Shown here one piece after another: positions 8,230 through 64,000 of a DNA stretch of 64,000 nt. Position 1 is the stretch's first letter. The number at the start of each line of letters is the position of its first letter. A program made the translations under genes and the position numbers. The notes beneath the pieces are model-generated. The model saw only the letters and a program-made list of their open reading frames with translations. It was not told the DNA's origin and ran no database searches. Source of the stretch: Pristiophorus japonicus (lineage: Eukaryota); assembly GCF_044704955.1 (NCBI RefSeq), contig NC_091978.1:212598001-212662000 (forward strand), given 5' to 3'.

Positions 8230-11200
8230 GGGCCCAAGTTTCCACATGATAAAAAACGGGCGCCCCTCTGAGCTGGGCGCCCGTTTTTCAAGCCTAAAAC
8301 GGCGCCTAAAAAAAACCTCGCAATTCTGGAGCATTCTGCAGCTCCTTGTCTGCCTGGCGCGGCGCCCAGGGGGGCAGAGCTTACACTCGCGCCGATTTTG
8401 TAAGTGGGAGGGGGCGGGTACTATTTAAATTAGTTTTTTTTCCTGCCGGCAACGTTGCGCGTGCGCGTTGGATCGTTCGCGCATGCTCAGTGTGAAAAAA
8501 ACATTGGCACTCGGCCATTTTTGTAGTTCTTTGTAGCTGTTTAATTTTTGAACATTTTTTTAATAAAAGCACATTAGCACTTGCAGCCTTCTCACTGTCT
8601 CCTTCCCCCCTCCCCCGCGGGAACAAAACGGCTGTTCCCTTCCCCCCTCCCCTCCGCGGGAACGAAGTGACTGTTTAATTCCTCCCCTCCCCTCCCCGGG
8701 AACGAAGTGACTGTTTAATTCCTCCCCTCCCCTCCCCGGGAACGAAGTGACTGTTTAATTCCCCCCCCTCCCCTCCGCGGGAACGAAGTGACTGTTTAAT
8801 TCCCTCCCCCCCCCCTCCCCTCCCCGGGAACGAAGTGACTGTTTAATTCCTCCCCTCCCCTCCCCGGGAACGAAGTGACTGTTTAATTCCTCCCCTCCCC
8901 TCCCCGGGAACGAAGTGACTGTTTAATTCCCCCCCCTCCCCTCCGCGGGAACGAAGTGACTGTTTAATTCCCTCCCCCCCCCCTCCCCTCCCCGGGAACG
9001 AAGTGACTGTTTAATTCCCCCCCCTCCCCTCCGCGGGAACGAAGTGACTGTTTAATTCCCCCCCCCCCTCCCCTCCCCGGGAACGAAGTGACTGTTTAAT
9101 TCCCCCCCCTCCCCTCCCCGGGAACGAAGTGACTGTTTAATTCCCCCCCCTCCCCTCCGCGGGAACGAAGTGACTGTTTAATTCCCCCCCCCCCCCCCCC
9201 CCTCCCCGGGAACGAAGTGACTGTTTAATTCCCCCCCCCTCCCCTCCCCGGGAACGAAGTGACTGTTTAATTCCCCCCCCCCTCCCCTCCCCGGGAACGA
9301 AGTGACTGTTTAAATCCCCCCCCCTCCCCTCCCCGGGAACGAAGTGACTGTTTAATTCCCCCCCCCCTCCCCTCCCCGGGAACGAAGCGGCTGTTTAATT
9401 CCCCCCCCCCCCTCCCCGGGAACGAAGTGACTGTTTAATTCCCCCCCCCCTCCACGGGAACGAAGTGACTGTTTAATTCCCCCCCCTCCCCTCCGCGGGA
9501 ACGAAGTGACTGTTTAATTCCCCCCCCTCCCCTCCCCGGGAACGAAGCGGCTGTTTAATTCCCCCCCCCCCCTCCCCGGGAACGAAGTGACTGTTTAATT
9601 CCCCCCCCCCTCCCCGGGAACGAAGTGACTGTTTAATTCCCCCCCCTCCCCTCCGCGGGAACGAAGTGACTGTTTAATTCCCCCCCCCCCCCCCCTCCCC
9701 GGGAACGAAGTGACTGTTTAATTCCCCCCCCCTCCCCTCCCCGGGAACGAAGTGGCTGTTTAATTCCCCCCCCTCCCCTCCCCGGGAACGAAGTGACTGT
9801 TTAATTCCCCCCCCCCTCCCCGGGAACGAAGTGACTGTTTAATTCCCCCCTCCCCTCCCCGGGAACGAAGTGACTGTTTAATTCCCCCCCCCCTCCCCGG
9901 GAACGAAGTGACTGTTTAATTCCCCCCCCTCCCCTCCGCGGGAACGAAGTGACTGTTTAATTCCCCCCCCCCCCCCCTCCCCGGGAACGAAGTGACTGTT
10001 TAATTCCCCCCCCTCCCCTCCCCGGGAACGAAGTGACTGTTTAATTCCCCCCCCCCTCCCCGGGAACGAAGCGGCTGTTTAATTCCCCCCCCCCTCCCCG
10101 GGAACGAAGTGACTGTTTAATTCCCCCCCCTCCCCTCCGCGGGAACGAAGTGACTGTTTAATTCCCCCCCCCCCTCCCCTCCCCGGGAACGAAGCGGCTG
10201 TTTAATTCCCCCCCCCCCCTCCCCGGGAACGAAGTGACTGTTTAATTCCCCCCCTCCCCTCCCCGGGAACGAAGTGACTGTTTAATTCCCCCCCCCCCCT
10301 CCCCGGGAACGAAGTGACTGTTTAATTCCCCCCCCCTCCCCTCCCCGGGAACGAAGCGGCTGTTTAATTCCCCCCCCCCCCCTCCCCGGGAACGAAGTGA
10401 CTGTTTAATTCCCCCCCCCTCCCCTCCCCGGGAACGAAGTGACTGTTTAATTCCGCCCCCCCCTCCCCGGGAACGAAGTGACTGTTTAATTCCGCCCCCC
10501 CCTCCCCGGGAACGAAGTGACTGTTTAATTCCACCCCCCCTCCCCTCCCCGGGAACGAAGTGGCTGTTTAATTCCGCCCCCCCCTCCCCGGGAACGAAGT
10601 GACTGTTTAATTCCACCCCCCCTCCCCTCCCCGGGAACGAAGTGGCTGTTTAATTCCGCCCCCCCCTCCCCGGGAACGAAGTGGCTGTTTAATTCCCCCC
10701 CCTCCCCTCCCCGGGAACGAAGTGGCTGTTTAATTCCGCCCCCCCCTCCCCGGGAACGAAGTGACTGTTTAATTCCCCCCCCCCCCTCCCCGGGAACGAA
10801 GTGGCTGTTTAATTCCCCCCCCTCCCCTCCCCGGGAACGAAGTGGCTGTTTAATTCCGCCCCCCCCTCCCCGGGAACGAAGTGGCTGTTTAATTCCCCCC
10901 CCTCCCCTCCCCGGGAACGAAGTGACTGTTTAATTCCACCCCCCCTCCCCTCCCCGGGAACGAAGTGGCTGTTTAATTCCGCCCCCCCCTCCCCGGGAAC
11001 GAAGTGGCTGTTTAATTCCCCCCCCTCCCCTCCCCGGGAACGAAGTGGCTGTTTAATTCCGCCCCCCCCTCCCCGGGAACGAAGTGACTGTTTAATTCCG
11101 CCCCCCCCTCCCCGGGAACGAAGTGGCTGTTTAATTCCCCCCCCTCCCCTCCCCGGGAACGAAGTGGCTGTTTAATTCCCCCCCCCCCTCCCCGGGAACG

Positions 11201-13581
11201 AAGTGACTGTTTAATTCCCCCCCCCCTCCCCGGGAACAAAGTGGCTGTTTAATTCCCCCCCCCTCCCCTCCCCGGGAACGAAGTGACTGTTTAATCCCCC
11301 CCCCCCCTCCCCGGGAACGAAGTGACTGTTTAATTCCCCCCCCCTCCCCTCCCCGGGAACGAAGTGACTGTTTAATTCCCCCCCCCTCCCCTCCCCGGGA
11401 ACGAAGTGACTGTTTAATTCCCCCCCCCCTCCCCGGGAACGAAGTGACTGTTTAATTCCCCCCCCTCCCCTCCCCGGGAACGAAGTGACTGTTTAATTCC
11501 CCCCCCCCCTCCCCGGGAACGAAGTGGCTGTTTAATTCCCCCCCCCCTCCCCTCCCCGGGAACAAAGTGGCTGTTTAATTCCCCCCCCTCCCCTCCCCGG
11601 GAACGAAGTGACTGTTTAATTCCCCCCCCCCTCCCCGGGAACGAAGTGGCTGTTTAATTCCCCCCCCCCCTCCCCGGGAACGAAGTGACTGTTTAATTCC
11701 CCCCCCCCCTCCCCGGGAACGAAGTGGCTGTTTAATTCCCCCCCCCCCCCCTCCCCGGGAACGAAGTGGCTGTTTAATTCCCCCCCCCTCCCCTCCCCGG
11801 GAACGAAGTGGCTGTTTAATTCCCCTCCCCTCCCCGGGAACGAAGTGACTGTTTAATTCCCCCCCCCTCCCCTCCCCGGGAACGAAGTGACTGTTTAATT
11901 CCCCCCCCCCCTCCCCGGGAACGAAGTGGCTGTTTAATTCCCCCCCCCCTCCCCGGGAACGAAGCGACTGTTTAATTCCCCCCTCCCCTCCCCGGGAACG
12001 AAGCGGCTGTTTAATTCCCCCCCCCCCCTCCCCTCCCCGGGAACGAAGTGACTGTTTAATTCCCCCCCCCCCTCCCCGGGAACGAAGTGACTGTTTAATT
12101 CCCCCCCCCTCCCCGGGAACGAAGTGGCTGTTTAATTCCCCCCCCCCCTCCCCGGGAACGAAGCGACTGTTTAATTCCCCCCCCCCCTCCCCTCCCCGGG
12201 AACGAAGTGGCTGTTTAATTCCCCCCCCCCCTCCCCGGGAACGAAGTGGCTGTTTAATTCCCCTCCCCTCCCCGGGAACGAAGTGGCTGTTTAATTCCCC
12301 CCCCCCCCCTCCCCGGGAACGAAGTGACTGTTTAATTCCCCCCCCCCCCCCCCCTCCCCGGGAATGAAGTGACTGTTTAATTCCCCCCCACCCCCTCCCC
12401 GGGAACGAAGTGACTGTTTAATTCCCCCCCCCCCCCCCCTCCCCGGGAACGAAGTGACTGTTTAATTCCGCTCCCCCCCCCCCCTCCCCGGGAATGAAGT
12501 GGCTGTTTAATTCCCCCCCCCCCCCTCCACGGGAACGAAGTGGCTGTTTAATTCCCCCCCCCCCCCTCCACGGGAACGAAGTGACTGTTTAATTCCCCCC
12601 CCCCCCTCCCCGGGAACGAAGTGGCTGTTTAATTCCCCCCCCCTCCCCCCCCTCCCCGGGAACGAAGTGGCTGTTTAATTCCCCCCCCCCCCTCCACGGG
12701 AACGAAGTGACTGTTTAATTTCCCCCCCCCCCCTCCCCGGGAACGAAGCGGCTGTTTAATTCCCCCCCCCCCCCTCCCCTCCCCGGGAACGAAGTGGCTG
12801 TTTAATTCCCCCCCCCCCTCCCCGGGAACGAAGTGGCTGTTTAATTCCCCCCCCCCCCTCCCCGGGAACGAAGTGGCTGTTTAATTCCCCCCCCCCCCTC
12901 CCCGGGAACGAAGTGACTGTTTAATTCCCCCCCCCCCCCCTCCCCGGGAACGAAGTGGCTGTTTAATTCCCCCCCCCCCCTCCACGGGAACGAAGTGACT
13001 GTTTAATTCCCCCCCCCCCCCCCTCCCCGGGAACGAAGTGGCTGTTTAATTCCCCCCCCCCCTCCCCGGGAACGAACGGCTGCAGAATTCTCCCTGCCTG
13101 AAGCACTTTCACACAGGTAGGAAGATGGTTTATTTAATCTTTTCTTTGCTTATAAATGTTTATTCAGGTTGGATTTATTTGTATAATATTTGTAGAAGTA
13201 TAAATAAGGATTGATTGTAGAATTTAATGAGTTCCCTCCCCCCCCCTCCCCCCCCCCCCCCCACCTCGTTCTGGACGCCTAATTTGTAACCTGTGCCTGA
13301 TTTTTTAATGTGTAGAACAGGTTTTTTCAGTTCTACAAAAATCTTCACTTGCTCCATTCTACTTTAGTTTGGAGTACGTTTTCACTGTGGAAACTTTGAA
13401 ATCAGGCGTCAGTGGCCGGACCCCCCCCCTTTTGAAGAAAAAATTCTGTTCCAAAGTAGAACTGTTCTACCTGACTAGAACTGCAGAAAAAAAAATGTGG
13501 AGAATTGTGATTTCTAAGATAGTCCGTTCTCCACCAGTTGCTCCTAAAAATCAGGCGCAAATCATGTGGAAACTTGGACCC
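8230..13581. mobile_element. PIF/Harbinger-type non-autonomous element containing a minisatellite
   Basis: TIRs GGGCCCAAGTTTCCACATGAT and ATCATGTGGAAACTTGGACCC (20/21 match). TTA target duplication at 8227-8229 and 13582-13584. Confidence 0.88.
8604..13078. repeat. Minisatellite, ~35-45 bp unit, roughly 110-115 copies
   Basis: Unit CCCCGGGAACGAAGTG(A/G)CTGTTTAATT + C(7-15) + optional TCCCC + T. Copy number estimated as length divided by unit size. Confidence 0.97.
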
Positions 13582-61355: not shown

Positions 61356-63217
61356 CATAGAAACATAGAAAATAGGAGCAGTAGTAGGCCATTCAGCCCT
61401 TCGAGTCTGCACCGCCTTTCAATATCATGGCTGATCCTTTATCTCAACACCATATTCCCGCTTTTTCTCCATATCCCTTAATGTCTTTTGTTTCTAGAAA
61501 TCTATCTATCTCCCTCTTAAATATATTCAGTGACTTGGCCTCCACAGCCTTCTGTGGTACAGAATCCCACAGGTTCACCACTCTCTGAGTGAAAATATTT
61601 CTCCTCATCTCGGTCCTAAATTTCCGACCCCGTATCCTGAGACTGTGACCCCTTGTTCTAGACTTCCCAGCCAGGGGAAACATCTTCCCCGCATCCAGTC
61701 TATCCAACCCAGTCAGAATTTTATATGTTTCAATGAGATCCCCTCTCATTCTTCTAAACGCTAGTGAATACAGGCCTAGTCGACCCAATCTCTCCTCATA
61801 CGACAGTCCTGCCATCCCAGGAATCAATCTGGTGAACTTTTGCTGCATTCCCTCTATGGCAAGTATATCCTTTCTTAGGTAAGGAGAGCAAAACTGCACA
61901 CAATATTCCAGGTGCGGTCTCACCAAGGCCCTGTATAACTGCAGCAAGACATCCTTGCTCTTATACTCAAATCCTCTTGCAATGAAGGCCAACATACCAT
62001 TTGCCTTTCTAACTGTTTGCTGCACCTGCATGTTTGCTTTCAGTGACTGGTGTACAAGAACACCCAGGTCCCTCTCTACATCAACACTTCCCAAGCCATC
62101 ACCATTTAATAATACTTTGTCCTTATGTTTTTCCTACCAAAGTGGATAACTTCACATTTATCCACGTTATACTGCATCTGCCATGTGTTTGCCCACTCAC
62201 TCAACCTATCTAAATCACATTGCAGTGTCTTTGCATCCTCCTCACAACTCACAATCCAACCAAGTTTTGTGTCGTCAGCAAACTTGGAAATATTACATTT
62301 GGTTCCCTCATCCAAATCATTTATATATATTGTAAATAGCTGGGGCCCAAGCACTGATCCCTGTGGTACCCCACCAGTCACTGCCCGCCAACCCGAAAAT
62401 ACCAGTTTATTCTTTCTCTCTTTCCTGTCAGTTAACCAACTTTCAATCCATGCCTGTATATTACCCCCAAATCCTTTGTGTTTTAATTTTGCACACTAAC
62501 CTCTTATGTGGGACTTTATCAAAGGCCTTCTGAAAATCCAAAATACACTACATCCACTGGTTCTCCCTTATCTATTCTATCAGTTACATCCTCAAAAAAC
62601 TCCAGTAGGTTTGTCAAACATGATTTTCCTTTCATAAATCTATGTTGACTTTGTTTAATCCCGTTGACATTATCTAAGTGTGCCGTTATCATATCCTTTA
62701 AAATAGACTCTAGCATTTTCCCTACTACTGATGTTAGGCTAACCGGTCTGTCGTTCCCCGTTTTCTCTCTCCATCTTTTTTTAAATAGTGGGGTTACATT
62801 TGCCACCCTCTAATCTGCAGGAACTGTTCCATATTCTATAGAATTTTGGAAGATGACAACCAATGCATATTTCCATGGCTACCTCTTTTTAGTATTCTGG
62901 GATGCAGATCAGCAGGCCCTGGGGATTTTTCAGCCTTCAGTCCCATTAGTTTCTCCAGCACTATTTTCTTACTAATAATCATTTCCTTTAATTCCTCTTG
63001 TTCACTAGACCCTTGGTTCCCTAGAATTTCTGGGACGTTATTTGTGTCCTCTTCCACTCTTCCATGAAGACAGAACCGAAGTATTTAATTAATTGTTCTG
63101 CCATTTCCTTGTTCCCCATTACAAATTCTCCTGTTTCCAACTGTAAAGGACCTATATTTGTCTTCAATAATCTTTTTCTTTTTACGTACTTGTAGAAACT
63201 TTTGCAGTGGGGTTTTA
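61356..63217 (-). mobile_element. CR1 LINE (RT + 3' end), interrupted at ~63217
   Basis: Minus-strand ORFs 61444-62094, 62106-62381, 62519-62806 and 62836-63057; tail catagaaacatagaaa. Confidence 0.92.
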
Positions 63218-64000
63218 TGGGCCCAAGTTTGCCTCCTCTGCTAGGTGCACCAATTTTGTAGAACAGAAACGGCGTCGATTTCTTATCTCCGTATTCTCCC
63301 CGTTGGTTCCAGGCCTGTGGTGCAGCGCATTGGAACCCGTGGTGGGCCGAGCCAGGTCTCGGCGCTGAGTCTGCGCGCATATGCAGTAGCTCCTGGCAGG
63401 CTGTTTCTGCAACCGCGCGCTGCAGGCTGTGTGGGAGGGGCCCGAAACACGCTGTCCCTAGCCCTGGCCGAATGGGCTCCCTCATTGGCGGCCAGAGTGT
63501 GCTCTGCAGGCTGTGTCAACCCTGACCTGATTGTAAAACTCCTGAAGAGTTTCTGGGGGTCTGGGTTTGTAACTCTCGACCAGATGAACCGGGGATTCAT
63601 GCGGGTGTTTGATGCCATGCCCGACATCAGTCTAGATGTGCCAAACTCTTACAGGACTCTGAAGGGGTTTTTGGCCATTGTCATCAGCAAGCGGTCATCA
63701 CCAAACCCCTCCAAGATTAGTGCCCCAAACGTGAAGCCAGGCCCTCTGTGAGTGAGGACGGGAGTAACTGTGTCACGCAGGCAGCCTAGTAAGCGGCCCC
63801 GACAGCAGGAACAGATGCGCTTGTGTGGAGGGAATGTCCACCGTATCTTGGGCGAACAAGATCCTCAGGATACTGAAAACCAAGGGGCTGGCTCCAGACC
63901 TTCCAGAGGATTTGTACCATTTGAGCAAGAGGGTACTTCCACCTCCCCCCTCCTCCTCTCCCCCCCCCCCCCCCACACTCTCTCCACCCACCCCCTCCTA
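63218..64000. mobile_element. Harbinger-type non-autonomous element running off the window, containing a host gene fragment
   Basis: The terminus GGGCCCAAGTTT is shared with the 8230-13581 element. It interrupts the CR1. Confidence 0.6.
63524..63765 (+). pseudogene. PDCD4: Intronless PDCD4-like fragment (C-terminal MA3 domain end)
   Basis: DLIVKLLKSFWGSGFVTLDQMNRGFMRVFDAMPDISLDVPNSYRTLKGF /frameshift/ HCHQQAVITKPLQD*CPKREARPSVSEDG, versus recalled human MILDLLKSLWKSSTITVDQMKRGYERIYNEIPDINLDVPHSYSVLERFVEECFQAGIISKQLRDLCPSRGRKRFVSEGDG. Confidence 0.82.

Follow-up and report, generated by a model that had tools for sequence, protein, structure and literature searches.

A family of non-autonomous PIF/Harbinger elements in the genome of the shark Pristiophorus japonicus works like a Pack element, but it loads pieces of spliced mRNA, serially and at one site, and the loads have been amplified on a large scale. 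The family combines spliced cargo from four named parent loci, junctions shared at 42-118 sites per load, TIRs, 3-bp footprints, a single loading site, and intermediate structures. For four loads, RNA processing preceded capture, while amplification came afterwards and left DNA-transposon ends. One loaded copy lies at the right edge of the window, that is, the whole stretch of 64,000 nucleotides that was analysed (assembly GCF_044704955.1, contig NC_091978.1, positions 212,598,001 to 212,662,000, forward strand). A preliminary description of this window had proposed either a Pack-type capture of host cDNA by a Harbinger MITE or a retrocopy inserted into the MITE. These two options are not mutually exclusive, and the evidence given below supports the first of them, in which a non-autonomous Harbinger-type element took up host cDNA and mobilised it.

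Comparison of the window copy with 19 others delimits a 1,282-bp (1.28-kb) non-autonomous PIF/Harbinger element at window-equivalent positions 63219-64500, bounded by imperfect TIRs of ~16 bp. The right TIR, which the preliminary description expected beyond position 64000, ends at G000:C2:212,662,500 (window-equivalent 64500), just past the window edge. The features of the window that bear on this element are as follows.

8230..13581, no strand assigned: related TIR element of 5.35 kb with a perfect TTA TSD; ends 91-93% like the autonomous element L149; different subfamily
62109..63215, minus strand: decayed LINE (RVT_1), host of the element insertion; the LINE picks up again beyond the right TIR
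63216..63218, plus strand: left target triplet TAT; the right triplet, ATT, is beyond the window (imperfect TSD)
63219..63235, plus strand: left TIR, its start identical to the TIR of transposase-coding Harbinger elements
63219..63493, plus strand: left arm of the 1,282-bp element
63419..63493, plus strand: family-wide loading-site motif; foreign loads start right behind it
63494..63521, plus strand: short duplicated backbone piece, which marks where an older load (cargo 3), since deleted, had been joined
63522..63592, plus strand: PDCD4-like cargo, 3' part of the third-last exon (parent alignment)
63593..63731, plus strand: PDCD4-like cargo, entire second-last exon, with both introns absent, a 1-bp deletion after 63674 and a premature stop at 63718-63720
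63732..63853, plus strand: PDCD4-like cargo, last exon, with the coding end, the native stop at 63790-63792 and ~60 nt of 3' UTR; no poly(A)
63854..63930, plus strand: RPS13 cargo, ~codons 69-93 (parent exon 4)
63926..63944, plus strand: RPS13 cargo from parent exon 5 (~codons 130-135); a deletion across 5 nt of microhomology connects it with the preceding piece
63945..63996, plus strand: C-rich tract, highly variable in length between copies
63997..64000, plus strand: beginning of a repeat of the loading-site motif; a further ~500 bp of right arm follow past the window

The repeat that the preliminary description had noticed, of a motif at ~63419 recurring at ~63503, is real, and the last 38 nt of the loading-site motif reappear once more behind the cargo, at 63997 to ~64034. 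Part of cargo 3 is retained at loci L047, L061, and L162-L171. The terminus GGGCCCAAGTTT, described as common to 63219 and 8230, is present at both positions, but a lone 12-mer of this kind is not above chance (6 matches against 9.4 expected, with 2 mismatches). The supposed TTA-flanked MITE at 8230 is a TTA-flanked relative, but it is a 5.35-kb element of another subfamily rather than a small MITE. It contains a long tandem array near 8600-9200, and its ends match L149, while its interior does not.

The window element is assigned to the non-autonomous PIF/Harbinger (Tourist-like) elements because of its TIR, its TSD and a partner element. Among 14 regions fetched around DDE_Tnp_4 matches, two elements, L146 (4.8 kb) and L149 (4.6 kb), were picked out that share the TIR start and carry a DDE_Tnp_4 transposase ORF (E=3e-39) together with a convergent second ORF. 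Pfam searches of this second ORF, in which a Myb/SANT domain was sought, gave a match in none of three cases. Across ~210 bp, the right end of the window element is 65-72% like the ends of L146 and L149, and the copies were likely spread by Harbinger transposase acting in trans. The Harbinger burst in this genome is very large and young. For the superfamily, TIRs of usually 25-50 bp and a Myb-like ORF have been described, and the available portion of the same paper (PMC9179366) reports that no Harbinger was found in elephant shark. A first look across the genome gave 89,386 DDE_Tnp_4 candidates, of which 150 were scored, and many lie in open frames of at least 400 aa.

Insertion of these elements adds 3 bp. 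Perfect 3-bp TSDs flank 21 of the 52 elements for which both ends were found (a set that includes L026, a neighbouring cargo-free element of another subfamily), against a mean of 4.6 and a maximum of 12 in 10,000 shuffles; a further 18 have one mismatch, 7 have two and 6 have three. TSDs of 2, 4, or 5 bp, seen in 12, 0, and 0 of the 52 as against 10.6, 0.3, and 0.1 in shuffled sets, are not above chance. The TSD consensus is A-W-T, unlike the TTA/TAA of plants. When 51 elements were tried for paralogous empty sites, 10 had them, and the gain was exactly 3 nt in 7 of these, with other offsets in 3. For the window copy, all 10 of the 10 paralogous LINE flank pairs stand at an offset of -3, and its footprint is therefore taken as 3 nt despite the TAT/ATT mismatch: compared with these empty paralogues, the interrupted LINE has gained exactly 3 nt. 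Imperfect TSDs, the window copy included, make up 31 of the 52; in some cases the triplet on one side, or on both, is not that of the empty site. Such TSDs exceed what a decay of 3-4% should produce, which counts against the explanation favoured below. Staggered cleavage within the TSD, proposed for Tourist-like elements in the available part of PMC4561436, could by analogy bring donor bases along.

Translation of 63100-64000 gives a PDCD4-type C-terminus divided between two frames. The resemblance proposed in the preliminary description is supported by Pfam MA3 (E=4e-8), by PDB PDCD4 chains (E=1e-15), and by the best protein match, a shark PDCD4-like paralogue (P0001, a sawshark record) that is 94% identical to a cleaner element copy, L003. 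The fragment had been placed at 63524..63765; it is real, but it extends over 63522-63853, and its source is the PDCD4-like paralogue. The parent gene, which had been suggested as something to be sought together with its intron positions, lies on the minus strand at G000:C4:138.455-138.482 Mb, with exons essentially identical to P0001. The element aligns to three consecutive exons of this parent, joined exactly at GT-AG sites; the two parental GT-AG introns, of ~3.17 and 3.48 kb, follow DQMNR and CPKR and are absent from the element to the base, as expected from the earlier claim that two exon junctions are crossed. The frameshift and the stop that had been noted are the 1-bp loss after 63674 and the premature stop at 63718-63720, and there is a second premature stop at 63787-63789. 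A 115-nt piece of PDCD4-like 3' UTR (97%) was also seen at G000:C7:695,528-695,642 (L179/L291), in what appears to be another short TIR-bounded element.

A second cargo, RPS13 (uS15), occupies 63854-63944, directly behind the PDCD4-like 3' UTR (PDB E=2e-13); the preliminary description had overlooked it, as well as the serial history and the common loading site set out below. A search for the RPS13 family found sister elements that carry a longer RPS13 piece and no PDCD4. Jointly, the RPS13 carriers span exon junctions 3/4, 4/5, and 5/6 of a six-exon parent on C14. The majority sequence of the RPS13 cargo has 2 differences from the parent, which are common to most free retrocopies and look ancestral. 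One free retrocopy, L041 at G000:C11:165,727,500, covers RPS13 in full and has an open reading frame, an A-rich tail and 6 differences from the parent. This retrocopy is not supported as the template, as the cargo majority is without its 3 private differences in the shared span.

Each of these loads was carried to many sites. The copies with the same element-PDCD4 junction, which the preliminary description had proposed to count, amount to at least 118 genomic sites; the PDCD4-RPS13 junction was found at at least 110, the element-HYPK junction (described below) at at least 78, and the element-RPS13 5' junction at at least 42, while the loading motif occurs at least 4,185 times, with some elements holding two. 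All are floors, obtained with 25-nt patterns and at most 1 mismatch, and each reversed-pattern control gave 0. The PDCD4 stretch itself has 306 candidates, 40 of which were scored, at 92-100%. Copies diverge from the majority by 4.4% for PDCD4 (41 pieces) and by 2.9% for RPS13 (55 pieces). Amplification after capture is thus seen for several loads, which makes them multicopy in the sense used for Pack-TIRs. An ordinary single retrocopy is ruled out by the multicopy shared junctions; neither a missing PDCD4 match nor a single copy with its own poly(A) and TSD, the outcomes named beforehand as refuting a mobilised capture, was found.

The family loads at one ~50-bp internal spot. This was established by a census of the first 62 exact motif matches on C1, two of which were dropped as second motifs of the same element, leaving 60 that were read. 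Of these copies, 26 are empty or nearly so, 8 hold GC-rich repeats only, 2 retain a 9-nt HYPK remnant, and 24 are loaded. The loaded copies carry 12 kinds of load, all beginning 1-25 bp after the motif as judged against two empty references, with linker accounting for some of this gap; one shared segment of ~155 bp sits further right in some copies. The census is anchored on the motif and on exact matches, and inserts elsewhere may be lost by stopping transposition. Two apparently empty copies (L223 and L242) retain 9 nt of the HYPK junction, and some empty copies therefore arose via loss of cargo between the duplicated motifs.

A search with the backbone revealed other loads behind the same motif, of several kinds. 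The HYPK load joins four exons of a parent on C21, across 3 junctions (Pfam E=1e-16, PDB E=1e-39). It ends in 7-10 A residues ~18 nt behind AATAAA, 5 of which can be templated, and the sequence then resumes inside RPS13. A syntaxin-type piece, indicated by an Atlas lead at 0.90 and with no match in PDB or Pfam, may be STX5; it is element-borne in 19 of 20 loci, the 20th being the parent exon bounded by AG and GT, both ends of which the cargo crosses in frame. Introns are absent in four loads, namely PDCD4-like, RPS13, HYPK, and syntaxin. DNA-like pieces, which belong to the 12 kinds counted in the census, occupy the same site. A mitochondrial ND5-type piece of 550 bp is inserted antisense (Pfam E=1e-18, translation table 2); it has 27 full-length matches, and the junction was the same in all 8 of those fetched. 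The loci concerned (L196 and L300-L307, for example G000:C1:48,507,944-48,508,494) represent a transposon-spread NUMT, and a sequence that is 84% like the ND5 piece, at C4318:12,654-13,199, may be a mitochondrial contig. A further load of 334 bp has an unspliced parent at C14:160,096,511, with 20 of 21 fetched matches element-borne and 1 free. The host parents, free of the element, are located on C4, C14 (two), C21, and C29.

In total, 17 distinct inserts were counted, of which 5 are named, 1 is traced to an anonymous site and 11 have no identity attached, some of these 11 being present in more than 100 candidate copies. Cargo 3 had no match in the protein search or in Pfam, a best Atlas lead of 0.86, 3 weak HMMER matches and no parent among the fetched matches. 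For loads U2 and U3, all 12 of the 12 matches fetched for each were element copies rather than parents. Two anonymous loads, at L206 and L207, end within ~35 nt of AATAAA or ATTAAA, as do RPS13, HYPK, and the long PDCD4-like piece, and may be the 3' ends of mRNAs.

Nested structures among the copies suggest serial loading. RPS13 occurs alone (codon ~31 to the 3' UTR), together with deletion forms, and also behind cargo 3. At L047, a cargo 3 stub is followed by a long PDCD4-like piece, a second motif and RPS13; L061 has the same arrangement with a deletion joining PDCD4 to RPS13, from which loss of the stub yields the form seen in the window. In the order that we infer, RPS13 (codon ~31 to the 3' UTR) would have been loaded first, cargo 3 would then have been placed ahead of it, and the PDCD4-like cDNA would have entered this composite, which two microhomology deletions would later have cut to the window form. 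Along the way, arms were probably swapped with other subfamilies. In trees of the two arms, built from 23 chosen rows and with one long branch in the left-arm tree, L047 clusters on either arm with copies that carry RPS13. Those that carry PDCD4 fall into two well-supported clades of each arm, each also containing empty copies. As these clades are mixed, loads or arms have moved between subfamilies, as template switching in gap repair would bring about.

We consider it probable that mRNA-derived cDNA was patched into breaks by microhomology and then transposed. During a very large Harbinger burst, the repair of excision gaps by copying element from element would repeatedly stall or break at the motif. 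The free 3' end could then be extended on an mRNA, or could anneal to loose cDNA or to mitochondrial or genomic DNA, before being rejoined by 1-6 nt of microhomology, often with duplication of 11-68 bp of the backbone. On this reading a cDNA would enter one copy once and spread from there through transposition. The PDCD4-like and RPS13 ends have no poly(A) and show microhomology at their joins, and backbone duplications of 11, 15, and ~68 bp accompany loads. Break patching is favoured because of these tail-less pieces, short microhomologies and backbone duplications, and because mitochondrial and unspliced DNA entered at the same site. The wider proposition, that transposition repeatedly breaks one internal site, that the germ line patches the break with reverse-transcribed mRNA (and mitochondrial DNA), and that each patch is then amplified 20-200-fold, is put forward tentatively, at slightly less than even odds.

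Part of what speaks against break patching fits the most serious alternative, which we regard as rather unlikely: that mRNAs were inserted into copies of the element by the LINE machinery, through target-primed reverse transcription, either by chance or with a Tx1-like endonuclease cutting the motif, after which transposase spread them, as in bat Helitrons. The HYPK A-run stands at a plausible cleavage site, and an 11-bp repeat surrounds the PDCD4-like piece in the intermediate form (L047/L161), both compatible with LINE-type insertion, as is a 15-bp repeat around cargo 3; moreover, LINE reverse transcriptase is abundant, and all 4 named mRNA loads have the same orientation as the element (sense). 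The 11-bp repeat has a deletion upstream, and a 7-20-bp TSD of its own was not seen for RPS13 or HYPK. Compared with LINE processed pseudogenes, the loads have the exon-exon junctions and lack the 3' poly(A), a short A-run being found for HYPK only; its absence from PDCD4-like and RPS13 argues against LINE insertion, as do the antisense ND5 and the unspliced genomic DNA at the same site, one of them with a flanking duplication of ~68 bp, and as does the finding that in the 60 census copies no LINE body starts at the motif. Chance retroposition in particular would have had to hit a target of ~0.4 Mb, or 0.007% of the genome (an estimate from the motif count), and a small RPS13-bearing lineage acquired three further inserts, although survival bias towards a dispensable interior is real. 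It is more doubtful still that DNA-level gap repair copied retrocopies already present elsewhere in the genome, so that RNA was never the template at the element. Free RPS13 retrocopies do exist (8 non-parent among 10 rows), one element copy (L073) has a variant in common with retrocopy L041, and entry of DNA-like templates is demonstrated by ND5 and the C14 piece. Yet both candidates (2 of 2) for the downstream 3' UTR of PDCD4-like turned out to be the parent and the 115-nt piece, no free PDCD4-like copy with upstream exons was found among 94 scored of 3,346 candidates in a strict first look, the HYPK N-terminus matches the parent only, and the RPS13 cargo departs from L041 and the parent in the manner already described. 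The searches for free retrocopies are floors.

Two further readings have very little probability. Chimeras formed at the RNA level, by a template switch of reverse transcriptase between element transcript and mRNA, with the copies then spread by retroposition, would accommodate the uniform sense orientation of the named mRNA loads and the presence of the motif in contigs of runs X6-X8, which are runs of unrecorded kind; against this, the ends of the copies are TIRs, tail-less and with 3-bp footprints, and the ND5 load is antisense. It is just as improbable that the cargo was kept or amplified as useful, whether as a peptide or as antisense or small RNA against PDCD4-like or RPS13. The PDCD4 cargo has an unweighted pN/pS of 0.66, below 1, a value that transition and CpG bias can also yield; a public perilipin gene model begins with the cargo frame, and hundreds of copies could produce small RNAs. 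Nevertheless, changes number 150/122/132 at codon positions 1/2/3, there are 11 stop codons in 41 copies, frameshifts are frequent, and anonymous and mitochondrial loads reached similar copy numbers. The cargo looks like a decaying pseudogene, with no sign of function.

Several candidate causes of a hotspot were considered, and none accounted for it. A ribozyme or structured RNA at the motif was rejected (0 Rfam matches in 4 loci), as was folding, since 5 of 6 stretches folded no better than shuffles (z of -0.11, 0.39, -0.05, -0.05, and -0.48); the single exception is the 37-mer of the window copy (z=-2.17). Stalling at the C-rich (G-quadruplex) tract was rejected as the sole cause, several loaded subfamilies being without the tract.

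Exons of a CC2D2-family gene flank the window on either side, on the minus strand, at C2:212,719,822-212,728,407 and C2:212,587,832-212,591,941. The insertion had been described as antisense to the CC2D2A pre-mRNA; the antisense orientation to a minus-strand CC2D2-family gene holds, but the gene may be either A or B, as a second paralogue is found on C3, and PF15625 matched on C3 only. A domain scan of 146 of the 230 window ORFs of at least 70 aa found TE domains only. In runs X6-X8, contigs match the motif, PDCD4-like and RPS13 of the parental type, and short stretches of cargo 3; none is clearly a chimeric transcript, and since the kinds of these runs are unrecorded, they are silent on expression. 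Runs X9 and X10 gave no coverage of the motif, which is not taken as absence. A 186-nt contig of run X5 (organism B) links the backbone to the beginning of PDCD4, with 3 differences, and continues from there directly in the RPS13 end piece, which hints at a loaded element under a second organism label. One copy with PDCD4 and RPS13, L182 at G000:C18:41,960,069-41,960,406, sits 4 kb upstream of a perilipin gene and contributes the N-terminal 51 residues to the public model P0024; the fusion runs via a cryptic GT donor in the PDCD4 stop context, which is present in most copies, and is seen in the gene model alone. Annotators should therefore be aware that such copies mimic PDCD4, RPS13, HYPK, or syntaxin retrogenes, and that one has been built into a public perilipin model.

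Related systems, compared here through the available portions of the cited papers, share some of these properties. In the little brown bat, four mRNAs were retroposed into Helitrons and spread to 118 copies, which was claimed as the first such case for any DNA transposon (PMC4224331). As in the shark family, these are intronless, mRNA-derived host pieces in a DNA transposon, amplified and sequential, with one ribosomal-protein mRNA among them. The bat Helitrons differ in being rolling-circle elements with 4 events and 118 copies in total, L1-type poly(A) and TSD, and no single loading site reported in the part available, while the shark elements are of the cut-and-paste TIR type, with 42-118 or more copies of each load, joins that mostly lack tails and show microhomology, a single site, and mitochondrial DNA as well. 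Animal Pack-TIRs (PMC8277862) number 370 in 100 genomes, 4 of them multicopy (one example with 3 copies), and are mostly hAT and Tc/mariner. They are likewise non-autonomous TIR elements with internal host sequence, breakpoint microhomology, and an origin by gap filling or template switching. The design of that study excluded captures without introns when the source gene had several exons, and its main text, as far as available, mentions neither Harbinger nor shark. By definition, Pack-TIR and Pack-PIF elements acquire sequence at the DNA level and keep introns, unlike the shark family with its four intron-free loads.

Plant Pack-PIF and other Pack-TYPE elements (PMC8903248) belong in the former case to the same superfamily and, like the shark family, are multicopy and contain fragments of genes, in some cases of two; acquisition is at the DNA level, through fusion of neighbouring insertions, whereas the shark cargo is intron-free. 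GingerRoot (PMC6839031) also forms multicopy families with gene fragments, captured at the DNA level with introns retained, unlike the shark cargo. The animal Harbinger Turmoil-1 of C. elegans (PMC2572040) carries two unrelated coding pieces at nearby positions, from which a hotspot was tentatively inferred, but an intron is retained, the pieces are within long TIRs, and there are 9 copies. The consulted portion of a plant review (PMC13317346) has nothing bearing on mRNA-loaded Harbinger elements. For the joins themselves, the closest analogy is found in mouse zygotes (PMC4516963), where cDNA of spliced messages is taken up at breaks, poly(A)-free and joined by microhomology. This reverse-transcriptase-mediated repair resembles the shark family in its tail-less spliced mRNA pieces, short microhomology and serial inserts; it differs in that the breaks are Cas9-induced and the events single, with no amplification. 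A search of mostly open literature, with Repbase and Dfam outside it, found no report of this family or of mRNA-loaded Harbinger elements in sharks.

Gene capture by animal TIR elements has been reported as rare, nearly always single-copy and DNA-based, whereas in the shark family it is repeated, serial, mRNA-derived, and amplified to tens or hundreds of copies per load. The family offers many independent natural junctions for testing RNA-templated break repair in the vertebrate germ line, and a defined sequence of ~50 bp as a candidate fragile site. If the wider proposition given above is true, the family would be a Pack element that loads mRNA and would preserve a fossil record of break repair templated by RNA, and DNA transposons would be a mass route for processed pseudogenes and NUMTs.
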